From NCBI RefSeq assembly GCF_003334335.1, contig NZ_QOWQ01000083.1: a stretch of DNA of 3,513 bases; one strand, written 5' to 3'. This DNA comes from Escherichia coli (GTDB taxonomy: Bacteria; Pseudomonadota; Gammaproteobacteria; Enterobacterales; Enterobacteriaceae). A program made the translations under genes and the position numbers. Positions 1-3,465 of this stretch are shown in pieces. Each line of letters starts with the position of its first letter. Position 1 is the first letter of the stretch. The notes beneath the pieces were generated by a model, which searched no databases, was not told where the DNA came from, and saw nothing but the letters and a program-made list of their open reading frames with translations.

Positions 1-203
1 CTTGCTAAATCTTCCGTCGTGACATCAATGTGACCACGTAGTGACACGCCGTGACATGTCGTGACATTTCGTGACGCGCTCACCAGAAGGTGGATATACA
101 CTGCCATCACTGTTGCGATTGGCTGTCCTGATACCCTGGCAATCGTTCGCCACTTGGGGTCATTTGGCATGTCATGCCACAATCTGAGCCAGGCATTAGC
201 CAT
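1..203 (-). CDS. Partial CDS (5' end only, runs off the window edge): putative phage replication-initiator / replisome-organizer-like protein
   Basis: Hand translation of the - strand from ATG at 203..201 gives MANAWLRLWHDMPNDPKWRTIARVSGQPIATVMAVYIHLLVSASRNVTTCHGVSLRGHIDVTTEDLA... with no stop down to position 1. It is absent from the ORF track only because no stop lies in the window. AGAGGTG Shine-Dalgarno lies a few nt upstream of the ATG. The W-x-R-L...D-P-K...LL-x-A N-terminal pattern recalls phage replisome-organizer N-domains (from memory). It sits directly downstream of the cro/cII-like genes, where lambdoid phages place replication genes. Confidence 0.45.
   Translation of the reverse strand, partial: MANAWLRLWHDMPNDPKWRTIARVSGQPIATVMAVYIHLLVSASRNVTTCHGVSLRGHIDVTTEDLA
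19..76. repeat. Iteron-like array: six direct repeats of GTGAC(A/C/G) phased at 10-11 bp
   Basis: GTGACA at 19, GTGACC at 30, GTGACA at 41, 51 and 61, GTGACG at 71. Spacings are 11, 11, 10, 10, 10 bp, about one helical turn. The array lies inside the 5' coding part of the leftward partial ORF. Confidence 0.85.
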
Positions 204-271
204 ACTCACCTCTTCTGATACCGAACTTTACCCACGAACTTCCGGAAGAAATCCGGTATAAATATTGTTGG

Positions 272-697
272 TCAATGCACAACAACAGCATTACCAGGCT
301 GACCACCACTGTTAGTCAGGGTGCCCCAGGCGATCGCTACAGCGACAAAATCATCCACATCTTTCACCAGCCGATCCCGTCGTTCGACGATCTCCCGGTA
401 ATATTCAGAACTGTGACTGCGCATACGGGCCACCAGCAAAGGCGGCATCGCCTTTTCGATCGCCGGTAACAGAGCCTGCATTTTTTCAACAGCATCAGGG
501 GTGTCTTTATCCAGCCAACGGAAAATTTTCTGGGTATTACGGGCCAGGGCTTCCGGATGGCTGTCGTCATACAGTTCCGGGAACGTCATTCCCAGCTCGA
601 AATACGCTTTGGTAATTTTCGCAGCCGGTACTTTTTCGCCGTCCGGATGCGCCCAGACATTCATCGCCATGCGGATGTGTTCATGCTTGATTTTCAT
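272..697 (-). CDS. ydaT: YdaT-family protein (CII-like prophage regulator; historically annotated 'putative toxin YdaT')
   Basis: 141-aa ORF starting MKIKHEHI..., which matches my recollection of the YdaT N-terminus of Rac-like prophages. Its start overlaps the upstream cro-like gene by 17 bp (681..697), implying translational coupling, in the cro-then-cII order of lambdoid phages. Confidence 0.8.
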   Translation of the reverse strand: MKIKHEHIRMAMNVWAHPDGEKVPAAKITKAYFELGMTFPELYDDSHPEALARNTQKIFRWLDKDTPDAVEKMQALLPAIEKAMPPLLVARMRSHSSEYYREIVERRDRLVKDVDDFVAVAIAWGTLTNSGGQPGNAVVVH

Positions 698-953
698 GAA
701 TCAACTCCGGTGCATTTGATGTGTTAACCTTGAATCCAACAGGTAAACCATCGGTTGGGTTAGGATAAATATCAGGGCGAATTTCATGCGGGGTAACTTC
801 CCACTTCATTAGCTGACATAACGGAATTACCTGCTTTGGGGGAACGTCAAAGCTAAACCATTGCCAAACAGTCTGTTGAGCGACCCCCATATAACGACCT
901 ATTTCAGCTTGAGTGTATTTCTGCCTAATTTTTTCGCGAGTGCTATCTAGCAT
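681..953 (-). CDS. ydaS: Cro-like HTH DNA-binding protein (YdaS-like)
   Basis: 90-aa ORF with a helix-turn-helix signature (QAEIGRYMGVAQQTVWQW). GAGGAG Shine-Dalgarno lies upstream of ATG 953..951. It is divergent from the repressor gene at 1063 across a ~110-bp regulatory region and is followed by the overlapping ydaT-like gene. Confidence 0.7.
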   Translation of the reverse strand: MLDSTREKIRQKYTQAEIGRYMGVAQQTVWQWFSFDVPPKQVIPLCQLMKWEVTPHEIRPDIYPNPTDGLPVGFKVNTSNAPELIHENQA

Positions 954-987
954 TTTGCTCTCCTCTAAAAAACTATAAGCAAAGCCT

Positions 988-1025
988 ACAATAAAAAACT
1001 GTACACGATCAACAGTTTTTTATTG
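988..1025. promoter_or_regulatory. Operator-like inverted repeat in the divergent intergenic region (O site 1): CAATAAAAAACTGT-N9-ACAGTTTTTTTATTG
   Basis: Left half-site 988..1001 and right half-site 1011..1025 are reverse complements apart from one extra T, with a 9-bp spacer. The region 954..1062 must contain the promoters of the cro-like and repressor genes. Candidate -10 for the leftward promoter is TATAGT (reverse complement of 971..976). Candidate -10 TAAAAT at 1051..1056 would make the repressor mRNA nearly leaderless, as for lambda cI from PRM. Confidence 0.6.
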
Positions 1026-1062
1026 TGATGCTTTTAACAGTATTTACCTGTAAAATTGAATA

Positions 1063-1464
1063 ATGATGAACGCCCTAGAAGTATCTATGTACAGAATCAG
1101 CAAGCTTCTTCAGGAAACTGGATGGAGCCAGGCTGAGCTTGCCCGTAGAATTGGTGTGACACAACAAACTGTTCAACAATGGGTCAGCGGTAAGGCTACA
1201 CCTAAAGCCTCAAGTTTGGATAAACTGGTTGAGGTTACAGGGCATCCATTGCATTGGTTTTTATTGCCTCCTGAAGAGGGGGAGCAAATTTTCACCCCTG
1301 ACACGATGAAAATTGGTCCTCGTCAACGCGAACTGCTCCAGGCTTTTAGTGCGTTTCCAGAGGAAGACCAAGAAAAAATGCTTCAAGAAATCAAAGACAA
1401 GAAAAAATCAATGGAAGAAACCATTGCCCGGTGGTTGGCGGCACAAAAAAGCCGCCGGGCGTGA
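1063..1464 (+). CDS. paaR2: HTH-XRE family transcriptional repressor (CI-like); regulator of the three-component PaaR-PaaA-ParE toxin-antitoxin module
   Basis: 133-aa ORF with a classic XRE HTH (SQAELARRIGVTQQTVQQWVSG) in the N-terminal half and a Lys/Glu-rich helical tail. It is divergent from the cro-like gene and immediately upstream of the antitoxin-toxin pair. The paralog assignment (paaR2 versus paaR1) is from memory and unverified. Confidence 0.75.
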   Translation: MMNALEVSMYRISKLLQETGWSQAELARRIGVTQQTVQQWVSGKATPKASSLDKLVEVTGHPLHWFLLPPEEGEQIFTPDTMKIGPRQRELLQAFSAFPEEDQEKMLQEIKDKKKSMEETIARWLAAQKSRRA

Positions 1465-1491
1465 CCACAGTACAAGAAGAGGAGTTATGCC

Positions 1492-1683
1492 ATGAGTACA
1501 GCCCTTTCTCCGATAGTTTCAGAATTCGAAACTACCGAACAAGAAAACAGTTACAACGAATGGTTACGCGCTAAAGTGGCGTCAAGCCTTGCAGACCCTC
1601 GTCCCTCAATTCCACATGATGAGGTAATGGCTGAAATGGAGAATCTTATTGCTCAAATTGCTGTAACTAACAGGAGCGAGTAA
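1492..1683 (+). CDS. paaA2: Type II antitoxin of a ParE-family toxin (PaaA2-like, small and likely disordered)
   Basis: 63-aa ORF MSTALSPIVSEFETTEQENSYNEWLRAKVA..., acidic and low in hydrophobic core residues. AAGAGGAG Shine-Dalgarno lies 7 nt upstream of ATG 1492. Its TAA stop shares one base with the toxin start (TAATG at 1681..1685). Size and sequence match my recollection of PaaA2 from E. coli O157:H7. Confidence 0.75.
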   Translation: MSTALSPIVSEFETTEQENSYNEWLRAKVASSLADPRPSIPHDEVMAEMENLIAQIAVTNRSE

Positions 1684-1970
1684 TGTTACCCATTTTGTGG
1701 CTACCATCTGCTCGCGATGATTTCCGTCAGATCGTAGCCTATATTGCTAAGGAAAATATTCCTGCAGCACGCAGACTAAAAATACGGATTGAAACGTCTG
1801 TTTTAGCCCTCTCTGAGCATCCATATCTATATCCGCCAAGTGATCGAGTATCCGGTTTGCGGGAAATTGTGGTTCACCCTAATTATATCGTTTTGTACCG
1901 AGTAGCAGCTTCAAGCATTGAAATTGCAAATATTGTGCATGCCCGCCGACAATTTCCCTTCCCTATCTGA
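1683..1970 (+). CDS. parE2: ParE/RelE-superfamily toxin (ParE2-like)
   Basis: 95-aa ORF with the ParE-like pattern (N-terminal L-P-S-A-x-DF-x-Q-I-x-YI, central REIVV-x-P-x-YIVLYRV, C-terminal I-x-N-I-V-H-x-R-R). The start is coupled to the antitoxin stop, and CAGGAG Shine-Dalgarno lies 6 nt upstream. Confidence 0.8.
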   Translation: MLPILWLPSARDDFRQIVAYIAKENIPAARRLKIRIETSVLALSEHPYLYPPSDRVSGLREIVVHPNYIVLYRVAASSIEIANIVHARRQFPFPI

Positions 1971-1987
1971 ACTGAACAATTTTCACA

Positions 1988-2013
1988 CTCCCTCATTCGA
2001 GGGAGTTTTTTTT
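1988..2013 (+). terminator. Rho-independent terminator of the repressor-antitoxin-toxin operon
   Basis: Perfect 7-bp stem CTCCCTC (1988..1994) / GAGGGAG (1999..2005) with a 4-nt loop ATTC, followed by eight T (2006..2013), 18 bp after the toxin stop codon. Confidence 0.85.
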
Positions 2014-2023
2014 GCCCAACACA

Positions 2024-2067
2024 ACAATTAAAAACTGTTGACACAAAACAGTTTTTAATTGTAGATT
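2024..2067 (+). promoter_or_regulatory. Second copy of the operator inverted repeat (O site 2) overlapping a strong rightward promoter
   Basis: CAATTAAAAACTGT (2025..2038) and ACAGTTTTTAATTG (2048..2061) are perfect reverse complements with a 9-bp spacer, extendable to 15-bp arms at 2024..2062. Consensus -35 TTGACA (2038..2043) is built from the left half-site plus spacer, and -10 TAGATT (2062..2067) follows an 18-bp spacer. The half-site is the same as at 988..1025 apart from single-base differences. Confidence 0.65.
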
Positions 2068-2246
2068 ATTTCCACTACCCCACCCCGCCCCACAGAACGC
2101 CAGGCAATACTTCGAGTTACCCGGCAGTGGTCAGGGGTTAAGTAGCCAGCCCGAGGCGTATGAACATGACGGCGGGAACACTTTATATAACAGCGCAGCA
2201 GGTTTTTAGTTCCGCTACCCCGGCGTTAAGGGGAAATGAGGTCAGC

Positions 2247-2399
2247 ATGGATACTATCGAGCTTGGCAACAACGAATCTCTGGTATGTGGAGTATTCCCC
2301 AACCTGGACGGCACGTTTACCGCGATGACGTATACCAGAAGCAAAACGTTTAAAACGGAAGCTGGCGCGCGTCGCTGGTTAGCAAGAAACTCTGACTGA
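2247..2399 (+). CDS. Small prophage protein, YdfA/YdaF-like (DUF1391-type); start uncertain, ORF is open from 2160
   Basis: GAGG Shine-Dalgarno lies 5 nt upstream of ATG 2247, giving 50 aa (MDTIELGNNESLV...RRWLARNSD). This size class matches the ~51-aa YdfA/YdaF proteins that follow the repressor gene in Qin/Rac prophages (from memory). The upstream in-frame ATGs at 2160 and 2166 lie within a possible secondary promoter (TGAACA 2161..2166, TATATA 2185..2190). Confidence 0.55.
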   Translation: MDTIELGNNESLVCGVFPNLDGTFTAMTYTRSKTFKTEAGARRWLARNSD

Positions 2400-2497
2400 T
2401 GAAGGTTAGTAATTAAAGAGTTCTCCACAGGCGAAGTGGAATACGTTCGCCGGACACGGGTAAGCATTCGGCATGCTCTTTAACAATCTGGGTATTC

Positions 2498-2944
2498 CTA
2501 ACCACAAAGGAATCGCATCAATTTGGATTTTGCAGACAGTTTCTCTTGTTGTTCTACGGAGATTCCTATTTTGATCTGGGTTTTTAAGATTGCGATATCT
2601 TTAAGCGACGACCAAATATTATCATCTGTTTTTTCCAGGAGCTTTAACTGCATTTTCAATTCCGAATCGGAATATTTTTCTGCATCATCATAAAGCTGCA
2701 GATATTCTGCGGATTTTCTCATTGCGTTACCTGACTTTTGTCCGAATCCGTAAATCGTTTGAACGGTTGCTATCACAACAATGAGAACTCCAGAAACTTC
2801 AGGAATAAATCCACCAATGACAGATGAACCGAGGATAATACTCACCACTGAGAAAAGTTTATCGAGACGACCAGTCGCTACAGAGAATAGTTGTTCAAGA
2901 AAATAATCATATAAAACCCTGTCAAGAATATCATCCCGGTCCAT
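2498..2944 (-). CDS. Hypothetical small inner-membrane protein: N-terminal amphipathic segment, two predicted transmembrane helices, charged helical C-terminal tail
   Basis: 148-aa ORF with AGGTGA Shine-Dalgarno 6 nt upstream of ATG 2944..2942. Hydrophobic stretches LFSVVSIILGSSVIGGFI and GVLIVVIATVQTIYGF are separated by the short loop PEVS, then a Lys/Glu/Asp-rich tail follows. The gene is convergent with the YdfA-like ORF and visibly AT-richer than flanking genes. No homolog recognised from memory. Confidence 0.7.
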   Translation of the reverse strand: MDRDDILDRVLYDYFLEQLFSVATGRLDKLFSVVSIILGSSVIGGFIPEVSGVLIVVIATVQTIYGFGQKSGNAMRKSAEYLQLYDDAEKYSDSELKMQLKLLEKTDDNIWSSLKDIAILKTQIKIGISVEQQEKLSAKSKLMRFLCG

Positions 2945-3003
2945 ATATCATCACCTGCTTGTTTGATTGTTGCTGTTCCCCCTCTCCTCTGAAGGAGCTG
3001 GAG

Positions 3004-3192
3004 ATGGTTTTGGTCGAATGTTTTTCTCAGGTATATGTTTCCTGGTATTCGGAATGTCCGCCCTGTCCGCAGGCTTACCAGTACCTGAACAATTCTTTTG
3101 AACCACCATATAAAACACCTTCCTGTTGTTGGGGATATCCAGATTATACAGATTTCCTGTTATTGGGGAATGACGGAAACCACCTCGCCTGA
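3004..3192 (+). CDS. Hypothetical Cys-rich small protein (62 aa); may be non-coding
   Basis: Consensus AAGGAG Shine-Dalgarno (2992..2997) lies exactly 6 nt upstream of ATG 3004. Product MVLVECFSQVYVSWYSECPPCPQAYQYLNNSFEPPYKTPSCCWGYPDYTDFLLLGNDGNHLA has 6 Cys including C-P-P-C. An equally long low-complexity ORF overlaps it on the opposite strand, and no family is recognised. Confidence 0.25.
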   Translation: MVLVECFSQVYVSWYSECPPCPQAYQYLNNSFEPPYKTPSCCWGYPDYTDFLLLGNDGNHLA

Positions 3193-3407
3193 CGTGGTTA
3201 AAAGCAGGCACACAACACGAAAGCGCACGGCGAGATTCCTTTGCATATAAGGCTTGTCGTTAAATTTCTTCGACCGTGCACTTCCGGTTGTGGCAGTCCG
3301 CGAAATGGCGCGGCGGTAAGTATGGCTGGGGCTTCCTCCATTGCTCCAGAAAATGCACCGGGTCGTCAGGTTGACCATACGCTTAAGTGACAGCCCCGCC
3401 ACAATAC

Positions 3408-3465
3408 CCATGTGTAGTATTTGGTGGCATCAGTTCTACTCCGTGACTGCTCTGCCACCCTTTTT
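3408..3465 (+). ncRNA. dicF: DicF-like prophage small RNA (cell-division-inhibitor sRNA family), 3' end defined by its intrinsic terminator
   Basis: TTTGGTGGCATCAGTTCTACTCCGTGACTGCTCTGCCACCCTTTTT is near-identical to my recollection of E. coli DicF (..TTTGGCGGTATCAGTTTTACTCCGTGACTGCTCTGCCGCCCTTTTT). The terminal stem differs by one compensatory change per arm (GGTGG/CCACC versus GGCGG/CCGCC). The 5' end is approximate because DicF is processed from a longer transcript, and the 5' ~15 nt do not match my memory of DicF. Confidence 0.55.
3423..3465 (+). terminator. Rho-independent terminator (3' hairpin of the DicF-like RNA)
   Basis: GGTGGCA (3423..3429) pairs with TGCCACC (3453..3459), with internal CAG/CTG pairing, followed by C then TTTTT (3461..3465). 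Orientation is + only: on the - strand the T-run would precede the stem. Confidence 0.6.

Follow-up and report, generated by a model that had tools for sequence, protein, structure and literature searches.

Gene overlaps at the antitoxin/toxin and cro-like/ydaT junctions of a Rac/CP-933P-like prophage immunity region in Escherichia coli

Related immunity switches and the layout of the locus

In prophage CP-933P of E. coli O157:H7, the genes paaR2, paaA2 and parE2 form an operon, the first gene of which has been shown to be leaderless (PMC8630535). In prophage Rac of E. coli K-12, ydaS and ydaT are carried on a bicistronic mRNA with no promoter between them (PMC11879457). YdaT footprints a site termed the YdaT-box in both CP-933P (PMC9986795) and Rac (PMC11879457), and its binding there activates a reverse promoter directed toward the repressor gene (PMC11879457, PMC8630535). 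Lambda cro-cII/PRE has the same layout, with an activator site at the 5' end of the activator's own gene and an antisense promoter toward the repressor (PMC8630535, PMC11879457); CII and YdaT are analogues that belong to separate sequence families (PMC8630535).

We analysed a stretch of 3,513 nucleotides of E. coli DNA (NCBI RefSeq assembly GCF_003334335.1, contig NZ_QOWQ01000083.1), referred to here as the window. To judge from its sequence, it comes from a lambdoid prophage of the Rac/CP-933P kind, of which it is the immunity region, and its genes make up a variant form of the paaR2-paaA2-parE2 / ydaS-ydaT immunity switch published for CP-933P and Rac. This lysis/lysogeny switch, the toxin-antitoxin pair included, is already known and well studied: its regulators, operators, structures and bistable behaviour are in print. 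The genes of the window, and the hairpin that follows them on the plus strand, are as follows.

272..697, minus strand: ydaT, encoding a CII-like activator of 141 aa (PDB 8bt1_A, E = 4.9e-83; phrog_163)
681..953, minus strand: cro-like gene in the YdaS position, encoding an HTH regulator of 90 aa (open reading frame; phrog_35, transcriptional repressor, E = 8.5e-28)
1063..1464, plus strand: cI-like repressor gene in the PaaR2 position, encoding an HTH protein of 133 aa (similarity to the 434 repressor HTH)
1492..1683, plus strand: PaaA2-like antitoxin gene, 63 aa (PDB 3zbe/5cw7, PaaA2, E = 1.5e-22)
1683..1970, plus strand: ParE2-like toxin gene, 95 aa (PDB 5cw7_B, ParE2, E = 3.9e-37)
1987..2006, plus strand: intrinsic terminator-like hairpin (8-bp stem with 5 GC pairs, then TTTTTTT) that ends the repressor-antitoxin-toxin operon

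The plus strand thus carries a three-gene operon (cI-like repressor, antitoxin, toxin), and the divergent minus-strand operon consists of the cro-like gene followed by ydaT. The toxin-antitoxin pair is the distal part of an operon headed by a repressor gene, not a two-gene operon. Both overlapping pairs, antitoxin/toxin and cro-like/ydaT, are very probably co-transcribed: the overlaps leave no space for promoter or terminator signals between the genes, and a scan of both operons, which was insensitive in that it missed the expected PR and PRM, returned no promoter-like or terminator-like site inside either pair.

The YdaT of the window is identical to that of CP-933P (PDB 8bt1) over residues 2-118 and also matches 3c4r (E = 1.4e-76). 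By these structure matches it is a POU-like HTH protein with a tetramerising C-terminal helix, and phrog_163 is the family of CII-like transcriptional activators. The antitoxin has the length of PaaA2, adjoins the toxin gene on its upstream side and scores 96 bits against the RelB-family antitoxin model NF050103 (cutoff 50). The toxin aligns with 5cw7_B over residues 1-93, and this alignment from the first residue, together with the Shine-Dalgarno (SD) site and structure that back the ydaT ATG at 697, bears out the gene calls. NCBI PGAP annotates the same two overlap geometries in a close relative, E. coli AR_0017 (2184-2200 and base 3186 of locus L001), so that the RefSeq annotation agrees with that of the window.

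Gene order and orientation are as in CP-933P (PMC8630535, PMC9986795), where the ydaS/ydaT border also bears the TTGATT-N6-AATCAA operator. No SD precedes the repressor gene that opens the plus-strand operon of the window; this gene is probably leaderless, as paaR2 is. The two loci differ in other respects. The toxins are only 67-68% identical and the antitoxin C-termini are different; the 1-nt overlap of the antitoxin and toxin genes in the window is replaced in the CP-933P type by a spacing of 1, 0 or 3 nt; and the ydaS/ydaT overlap is 4 nt in CP-933P as against 17 nt here. The Cro-like and cI-like alleles and their operators are also distinct, the window having 39-nt AAAAACTGT...ACAGTTTTT palindromes where CP-933P has GTTTAGTAA consensus repeats (PMC8630535). 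The cI-like protein, which begins MMNALEV where PaaR2 begins MQKKE, has a weak, below-cutoff match to the DicA model and no PaaR2 entry among its matches in the PDB search; its gene appears to be a different immunity allele from that of PaaR2.

The racR-ydaS-ydaT region of Rac (PMC11879457) has, like the window, a YdaT-box (ATGATTCATGAAAATCAA in Rac) whose spacer holds the ydaT ATG. Over the opening 24 nt of ydaT the two loci agree at 23 positions, although the YdaT proteins are only 31% identical. Unlike in the window, ydaS of Rac stops 22 nt before ydaT, without overlap, and no toxin-antitoxin pair follows the repressor gene.

The antitoxin/toxin junction

The sequence-only reading of this DNA had held that the antitoxin stop and the toxin start share one base. 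The overlap is present as described, the antitoxin reading frame (1492-1683) and the toxin reading frame (1683-1970) having base 1683 in common.

1479..1484, plus strand: antitoxin SD, GAGGAG, strong (-8.6 kcal/mol), inside the 27-nt gap past the repressor stop
1672..1676, plus strand: toxin SD, AGGAG (-6.6 kcal/mol), 6 nt upstream of the ATG and within the antitoxin coding sequence
1681..1685, plus strand: TAATG, comprising the antitoxin stop and the toxin start (sequence, open reading frames, PGAP annotation in AR_0017)

We found a 1-nt overlap in 94 of 94 window-type loci (80 of 80 in a first scan and 14 in a second), with TGATG in use as well as TAATG. At the 66 loci of CP-933P type, the two genes are separated by 1 nt in 46 cases, by 0 in 14 and by 3 in six. 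Stop-start distances therefore range from -1 (the value in the window) to +3 nt across about 160 related loci, and their persistence at no more than 3 nt through changes of stop codon and of antitoxin C-terminus suggests that the apposition of the two genes is maintained. That every window-type locus has the 1-nt overlap could, on the other hand, be due to shared ancestry instead of selection.

Termination-reinitiation is efficient at stop-start distances of -8 to +6 nt (PMC10666635). As -1 to +3 nt falls inside this range, the conserved trait at the junction, which is closeness and not the overlap as such, is compatible with coupling by termination-reinitiation. The geometry itself is real but unremarkable: 24% of co-directional E. 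coli gene pairs lie at -8 to +6 nt (PMC10666635), stop-start overlaps are among the commonest operon geometries, and the observation carries little weight as a discovery. Nor is an overlap evidence of coupling without comparative or experimental support. Short overlaps are 4.5-fold enriched among E. coli pairs that encode subunits of a complex (PMC6728339, PMC10666635), and PaaA2 and ParE2 co-crystallise as a single complex (PDB 5cw7/5cze). The TAATG of the window thus has the canonical -1 geometry, and joins two subunits of one complex, as in the pairs studied by Huber et al. 2019, 2023 (PMC6728339, PMC10666635).

A toxin-antitoxin pair in which coupling has been demonstrated is kis-kid (parD, plasmid R1), where, as in the window, a single mRNA carries the antitoxin gene followed by the toxin gene (PMC3920265, citing Ruiz-Echevarria 1995). 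Coupling of kis-kid limits toxin synthesis when the antitoxin is left untranslated and acts alongside antitoxin autoregulation; this was established experimentally, whereas coupling in the window is putative. By analogy, the two systems would also differ in regulation, as PaaA2-family antitoxins have no DNA-binding domain (PMC8630535) and control would be delegated to the cI-like protein. A literature search returned no coupling data for paaA2-parE2.

It had been proposed that the overlap enforces antitoxin-to-toxin stoichiometry. This stands in part: coupling would make production of the toxin follow that of the antitoxin, but it does not by itself generate an excess of antitoxin (PMC5535158). 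In E. coli data, the antitoxin:toxin ratio arises mainly from higher initiation rates on the antitoxin (PMC5535158), and by anti-SD duplex energy the antitoxin has the stronger SD of the two genes in 13 of 16 distinct variants, with means of -9.5 kcal/mol for the antitoxin and -6.4 kcal/mol for the toxin (P = 0.001 by Wilcoxon test, uncorrected for shared ancestry). The strong antitoxin SD is kept in all variants; most also retain a GGAG-like toxin motif while the antitoxin residues encoded there vary (NRSE, NGSV, HRGE, ESESV). The difference in SD strength is the more likely source of antitoxin excess over toxin.

A two-codon mini-ORF, ATGCCATGA, overlaps the antitoxin start at 1487-1495. We rejected it as an axe-txe-like regulatory minigene; it is missing from most variants and is incidental.

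The cro-like/ydaT junction and the YdaT-box

Lambda cro and cII neither overlap nor abut, being set apart by an intergenic region that contains the terminator tR1. In the window the cro-like reading frame (681-953) runs into that of ydaT (272-697) on the same strand, and the 17-bp overlap previously read at 681-697 is confirmed.

681..697, minus strand: 17-nt overlap, with the cro-like stop (TGA 683-681) lying on ydaT codons 1-6 (open reading frames, PGAP annotation in AR_0017)
687..704, no strand assigned: YdaT-box or operator OM, a perfect TTGATT-N6-AATCAA palindrome (exact match) with the ydaT ATG (697-695) in its spacer
705..708, minus strand: ydaT SD, GGAG (-6.1 kcal/mol anti-SD duplex), 7 nt upstream of the ATG and within the cro-like coding sequence

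The overlap sits in an invariant DNA block, TGATTCATGAAAATCAAGCATGA, known from published work as the YdaT-box (operator OM) and having the ydaT ATG at its centre. This block covers the first 24 or so nucleotides of ydaT and the preceding 5-7 nt, and at 687-704 it contains a perfect TTGATTTTCATGAATCAA, in agreement with the (T/A)TGATT-N6-AATCAA inverted repeat over the ydaT start. Among 86 distinct loci, the right half-site AATCAA is present in all 86 and the left half-site TTGATT in 54; ATGATT, GTGATT, CTGATT and GGGATT also occur naturally in the left position. Diversity at third codon positions of ydaT is 0.085 in codons 1-9, compared with 0.259 elsewhere.

The block carries TGA in all three frames, and at least 11 Cro-like families enter it among the 86 distinct loci, ending in ...DS*, ...IHENQA* or ...GG*. 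Frame alone decides whether the Cro-like gene stops 3 nt short of the ydaT ATG or overlaps ydaT by 4 or 17 nt, and Cro-like proteins accordingly gain a tail (DS, IHENQA or GG) from ydaT DNA; in the window, the final six codons of the cro-like gene (IHENQA) come from the ydaT 5' block. Stops in three frames of a 24-nt block are statistically unremarkable by themselves.

The 17-nt overlap occurs in 27 of 80 close relatives, alternating with a 4-nt overlap and a 3-nt gap, and in some relatives the Cro-like gene and ydaT are separated by 22 nt. Geometries are mixed within four Cro-like families, the clearest pair of loci (L072 and L014) differing by a 1-nt indel at the junction. Five Cro-like families carry the IHENQA tail, and three of these include 4-nt members that end in DS as well. 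When the block was used as the anchor of a search, window-type and Rac-type ydaT were recovered behind many Cro alleles, with a 22-nt gap, a 3-nt gap, or a 4-nt or 17-nt overlap. On the loci compared, exchange between at least 11 Cro-like families and two divergent YdaT types has left a sharp mosaic joint at the cro/ydaT border; this joint and its frame-dependent tails could inform work on modular exchange among lambdoid prophages and the design of constructs for the switch.

As the length of the overlap is set only by the frame in which a Cro-like allele enters the invariant block, we read the 17 bp as a by-product of the regulator-binding site on the ydaT start codon and not as a device for translational coupling; a published operator accounts for the longer of the two overlaps. 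The proposal that it is a conserved coupling device does not hold, given that ydaT of one and the same kind is found in geometries as different as a 22-nt gap and a 17-nt overlap and that -17 lies outside the range of about -8 to +6 nt for termination-reinitiation. In this the pair differs from those of Huber et al.: it belongs to the long 'phase 1' overlaps, described by the authors as typically uncoupled (PMC10666635). Some coupling at -17 is nevertheless possible, because in RNA phages ribosomes are reported to get back, after termination, to start codons that lie 38-50 nt upstream (PMC12548453).

It may be that the block of about 30 bp (YdaT-box, ATG and first eight codons) is a multi-purpose module joint in Rac/CP-933P-like prophages, with both its three-frame stops and the apposition under selection. 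Its four roles would be those of an operator for the CII-like activator, the ydaT start, a three-frame stop cassette that ends Cro alleles within reinitiation range, and a short homology patch for the exchange of cro and cII-like modules between heteroimmune prophages. We offer this tentatively and think it on balance doubtful.

As to the PRE-like promoter, the window has a weak -10-like TAACCT (725-730) where CP-933P has TACAAT.

Coupled or independent translation

The overlaps themselves are confirmed, and their interpretation as translational coupling is partly supported. Our literature search found no translation experiments on either junction, here or in the reference systems. We propose that a ribosome ending the antitoxin gene would reinitiate at the toxin AUG, aided by the SD 6 nt upstream, which would make toxin synthesis contingent on antitoxin synthesis; the antitoxin excess would come mainly from the stronger antitoxin ribosome-binding site. 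At the other junction, the invariant block is the YdaT-box/OM operator, through which a reverse PRE-like promoter would be activated, and it has the ydaT start codon at its centre. Any Cro-like allele joined upstream ends in the block, the frame of the window's allele giving the 17-nt overlap. Translation of ydaT on the bicistronic mRNA would rely chiefly on the gene's own SD, with reinitiation weak at most. This explanation as a whole, by which the antitoxin/toxin overlap is the local form of a family-wide apposition with reinitiation and the 17-nt overlap a by-product of the YdaT-box, is in our judgement probable.

Independent initiation is possible because both downstream genes carry their own SD, and one alternative is that coupling is absent from both junctions, the overlaps being compact packing and polarity being Rho-dependent and transcriptional. 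The two SDs are well spaced, at 6 nt for the toxin (AGGAG) and 7 nt for ydaT (GGAG), and persist across variants although the amino acids encoded by the upstream frame at these sites change. The ydaT SD is at -5.4 kcal/mol or stronger in relatives of every geometry from the 22-nt gap to the 17-nt overlap, and at Rac-type junctions ydaT works behind that gap. The PvuII C/R restriction-modification system resembles the cro-like/ydaT pair in that the gene for a small HTH regulator overlaps a lethal downstream gene by about 20 nt, with hairpins predicted at the ribosome-binding site, and direct tests found its translation to be independent and its polarity transcriptional (PMC2997769). However, tested native E. 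coli pairs with overlaps of -1 or -4 were coupled (PMC10666635), and a general lack of coupling sits poorly with toxin-antitoxin distances that stay at 3 nt or less in some 160 loci whatever the stop codon or antitoxin C-terminus. We regard this alternative as somewhat unlikely.

That both overlaps were selected for tight coupling, fixing antitoxin:toxin and Cro:YdaT stoichiometry and making upstream nonsense mutations translationally polar, was the view taken in the sequence-only reading, and it now seems unlikely. In its favour are the overlap or abutment of genes at both junctions, the conserved apposition at -1 to +3 nt, the precedent of kis-kid, and the strict coupling of 14 native overlapping pairs (PMC10666635, citing Huber 2019). 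These points have to be set against the variable geometry upstream of one and the same ydaT, seen even inside single Cro families, the position of -17 outside the reinitiation window, and the presence of an SD on both downstream genes. The literature found reports no Cro-YdaT complex, which leaves that pair without a stoichiometry argument, and coupling would not account for the excess of antitoxin.

Coupling might instead act through RNA unfolding, the toxin SD and AUG being paired with antitoxin codons some 30 nt upstream in a hairpin (roughly 1648-1684) until exposed by a ribosome translating the end of the antitoxin gene; we consider this very unlikely as the mechanism. In the minimum-energy fold, AUUGCUC is paired with GAGUAAU and UUGCUG with CAGGAG; the 120-nt fragment has z = -2.7; and pairing of the SD and AUG is predicted for the majority of window-type variants and, through a different downstream partner, for the CP-933P type. 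Such predicted pairing would fit unfolding-based coupling, instead of or besides reinitiation. Yet opening the toxin site would cost 5.5 kcal/mol, compared with 5.8 for the antitoxin site and 5.4 for the cro-like site; the consensus fold reaches only -3.6 kcal/mol, with a single double substitution and no real covariation; the pairing partner differs between the two clades; and similar predicted hairpins had no effect in PvuII (PMC2997769). We therefore did not retain RNA occlusion of the toxin site as positive evidence, its opening energy being no higher than at the sites of the upstream genes, its partner not conserved and its covariation essentially nil. The fold of the ydaT region was no better than that of shuffled sequences (z = -0.99).

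Long overlaps are often start-codon miscalls, and two in-frame ATGs, M10 (670) and M12 (664), lie 27 and 33 nt downstream of the annotated ydaT start, past the cro-like stop. That either is the true start, which would make the 17-nt overlap an annotation artefact, is extremely improbable and was rejected: neither has an SD (+0.1 and -1.5 kcal/mol, against -6.1 for the ATG at 697), both would truncate the fold by cutting helix alpha1 (Glu6-His17, in a crystal construct that begins at K2; PMC9986795), the published account of the footprinted YdaT-box places the ydaT initiation codon inside it (PMC11879457), and MKIKHEHI is kept even in the divergent YdaT of Rac.

Layout of the locus

As read from its sequence, the window has the gene layout that Jurenas et al. 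2021 (PMC8630535) reported, in which a cI-like regulator stands first in an operon with a toxin-antitoxin pair and a ydaS-ydaT (Cro-like/CII-like) operon diverges from it, the two together forming a bistable switch. The features concerned are as follows.

272-697, minus strand: ydaT, 141-aa ORF; ATG 697-695; PDB 8bt1 match, E=4.9e-83
681-953, minus strand: cro-like gene, 90-aa ORF; TGA 683-681; phage repressor family phrog_35
1492-1683, plus strand: antitoxin, 63-aa ORF; TAA 1681-1683; PaaA2 match, E=1.5e-22
1683-1970, plus strand: toxin, 95-aa ORF; ATG 1683-1685; ParE2 match from residue 1, E=3.9e-37
1987-2006: terminator, 3' of the toxin gene

The 141-aa protein is identical at residues 2-118 to YdaT of prophage CP-933P (PDB 8bt1), and a 133-aa protein is an HTH protein resembling 434 repressor. 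IMG/VR contig UViG_2563366825_000020 matches window bases 1-3197 at 99.9% identity, and many E. coli chromosomes match at 92-94% across 77% of the length. As the cI-like gene heads the operon and a terminator follows the toxin, the antitoxin and toxin genes do not form a two-gene operon but are the distal two of three genes in one; the antitoxin begins 27 nt from the repressor stop and has its own strong Shine-Dalgarno (SD) sequence (-8.6 kcal/mol).

The sequence-only reading had proposed tight translational coupling at both gene overlaps. The geometry itself was confirmed, with TAATG at 1681-1685 between antitoxin and toxin and 17 nt shared by the cro-like and ydaT ORFs (681-953 and 272-697, minus strand); the NCBI pipeline annotation of AR_0017, the closest complete E. 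coli genome, gives exactly both. The interpretation as a whole is partly supported, the two junctions differing in what they suggest.

The antitoxin/toxin junction

Stop and start overlap by 1 nt in all 80 viral-contig loci whose toxin is at least 83% identical to that of the window, through 18 distinct junction sequences (TAATG or TGATG), and again in 14 further window-type loci found by another scan that started from the ParE2 sequence of CP-933P. The overlap is absent from the CP-933P-type loci of that scan, where the two codons are separated by 1 nt in 46 loci, abut in 14 and are separated by 3 nt in six. Given 1-nt overlaps in one type and gaps of 0-3 nt in the other, the trait conserved across these sequences is stop/start apposition within -1 to +3 nt (negative values denoting overlap). 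Efficient reinitiation has been reported for distances of -8 to +6 nt; 24% of co-directional gene pairs in E. coli belong to this class, in which subunits of complexes are 4.5-fold enriched (Huber et al. 2023, PMC10666635). PaaA2 and ParE2 are known to form a complex (PDB 5cw7). Apposition and complex are thus compatible with coupling, without proving it, and a translationally coupled toxin-antitoxin pair is plausible. Translational coupling proper has been demonstrated for kis-kid (PMC3920265).

Coupling is probably not the main determinant of antitoxin excess. The toxin has an SD of its own (AGGAG, 6 nt upstream, -6.6 kcal/mol), and most variants keep a GGAG-like motif, including some in which the antitoxin residues encoded there differ. 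Of 16 distinct variants, 13 have an antitoxin SD stronger than that of the toxin (means -9.5 versus -6.4 kcal/mol), in line with the published view that in type II systems of E. coli it is mainly initiation rates that put the antitoxin in excess (PMC5535158).

Folding predictions pair the SD and AUG of the toxin with antitoxin codons some 30 nt upstream (z=-2.7). Predicted opening costs are about equal at the toxin, antitoxin and Cro-like sites (5.5, 5.8 and 5.4 kcal/mol), the predicted pairing partner differs in the CP-933P type, and the consensus fold shows essentially no covariation. A two-codon mini-ORF (ATG-CCA-TGA, 1487-1495, plus strand), whose stop overlaps the antitoxin ATG, is confined to some close variants (31 of about 160 loci); single changes remove it in others, and it is probably incidental.

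The cro-like/ydaT junction

Here the position of the upstream stop varies. Counting overlap into ydaT as positive and a stop before its ATG as negative, it lies at +4 in 49, +17 in 27 and -3 in four of 80 loci with YdaT at least 91% identical. A crude clustering of the upstream proteins from 86 distinct loci gives 11 families, all ending in ...DS* (+4), ...IHENQA/T* (+17) or ...GG* (-3), and mixed geometries occur in four of the 11; L072 and L014 are the clearest pair of loci, their junctions differing by a 1-nt indel directly before an invariant block. There are only three endings because this block, TGATTCATGAAAATCAAGCATGA, has TGA in each of its three frames. Its 16-nt core, used as a search query, heads window-type and Rac-type ydaT behind various Cro alleles at -22, -3, +4 or +17; the 22-nt gap is that between ydaS and ydaT in K-12 Rac, and recurs at three window-type ydaT genes. 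In a comparison of the 22 nt before the ydaT ATG (L013, L016, L034 and L162, the last being Rac), the Rac spacer AACATCAAGAGGCAAATGATTC reappears in other prophages, where it encodes the tail (...KRQMIHENQA/T) of a Cro-like protein 107 aa long, so that the same DNA is intergenic or coding by context.

An SD of at least -5.4 kcal/mol in strength is present in every geometry from -22 to +17, and predicted folding of the ydaT region is no better than that of shuffled sequence (z=-0.99). Huber et al. (PMC10666635), in whose notation overlaps are negative, place -17 among long phase-1 overlaps, which are typically uncoupled, and found reinitiation nearly abolished by gaps of about 20 nt. Given the variable geometry, the three-frame TGA block, the ubiquitous SD and the typical lack of coupling at -17, the most fitting reading of the 17-nt overlap is that it results incidentally from a mosaic joint and an operator; that coupling is its reason is unlikely, as the stop simply moves with the frame that enters the ydaT operator block. 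In the PvuII restriction-modification system, the gene of a small regulator runs about 20 nt into that of the lethal endonuclease and predicted hairpins cover the ribosome-binding site, yet translational coupling was not found in direct tests, and transcriptional polarity explained the polar effect of a frameshift (PMC2997769); upstream-stop mutants would therefore be informative only with mRNA controls.

The overlap region contains a perfect palindrome, TTGATT-TTCATG-AATCAA (687-704), whose spacer holds the ydaT start codon. By sequence it is the operator OM, on which YdaT left a footprint in CP-933P (PMC9986795), and the 'YdaT-box' footprinted in Rac, where the spacer ATG is likewise the ydaT initiation codon and a reverse promoter reading toward the repressor gene is activated through the box (PMC11879457). 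All 86 loci carry AATCAA, third-position diversity is 0.085 in ydaT codons 1-9 against 0.259 in the remaining gene, and Rac ydaT matches the window at 23 of the first 24 nt with proteins 31% identical; these comparisons indicate that the block is conserved as DNA, not as protein. In our own reading of the sequences, a weak -10-like TAACCT (725-730, plus strand) lies 20 nt right of the box, and its counterpart in CP-933P-type loci is TACAAT, at 21 nt. With the window's Cro allele, the PRE-like reverse promoter may thus differ or be weaker.

Earlier publications cover the system, its operators and the siting of the YdaT-box on the start codon, and the finding is already known in kind. Modestly new is that many different Cro-like alleles terminate in the conserved block according to frame, which marks the block as a sharp module boundary.

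Other elements in the window

Two 39-nt elements (988-1026 and 2024-2062; 79% identical), each a perfect 15-16-nt inverted repeat, ACAATAAAAAACTGT...ACAGTTTTTTATTGT, probably represent OR and OL in this immunity type. The former separates the cro-like gene from the divergent cI-like gene; the latter overlaps a TTGACA-18-TAGATT promoter 3' of the toxin terminator. The CP-933P repeats differ from them. No SD precedes any candidate start of the cI-like gene (ATG 1063, 1066 or 1087, within 1063-1090 of the plus strand). The lack of one agrees with leaderless translation like that demonstrated for paaR2 and lambda cI, and makes the true start uncertain.

Six GTGAC(A) repeats at 19, 30, 41, 51, 61 and 71 (19-75, plus strand), spaced 10-11 nt in helical phase, are possibly origin iterons. 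They lie within the 5' part of the replication-protein gene next after ydaT, annotated DnaT-like/O-like in an E. coli relative; GTGAC occurs 11 times in the window against 5.4 expected, six of them in this 57-nt stretch.

The antisense small RNA DicF is matched over its full length (3409-3460, plus strand; Rfam RF00039, 62 bits, gathering score 48, E=1.9e-12), which fits the left arm of a Rac/Qin-like prophage; dicB lies just past this point in an E. coli relative. A 148-aa ORF (2498-2944, minus strand; phrog_6315, E=1.3e-23; no NCBIfam match) occupies the position of sieB in Rac, within a segment (~2431-3420) replaced in otherwise near-identical relatives, and is a candidate variable 'moron' or exclusion gene. 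Finally, the 79-aa ORF at 2160-2399 (plus strand) is probably over-extended: the conserved YdaF-like protein (phrog_751, E=1.2e-34; DUF1391 in an E. coli relative) comprises 50 aa from ATG 2247, with GAGG 6 nt upstream, and RefSeq annotates a 153-nt gene at this position.
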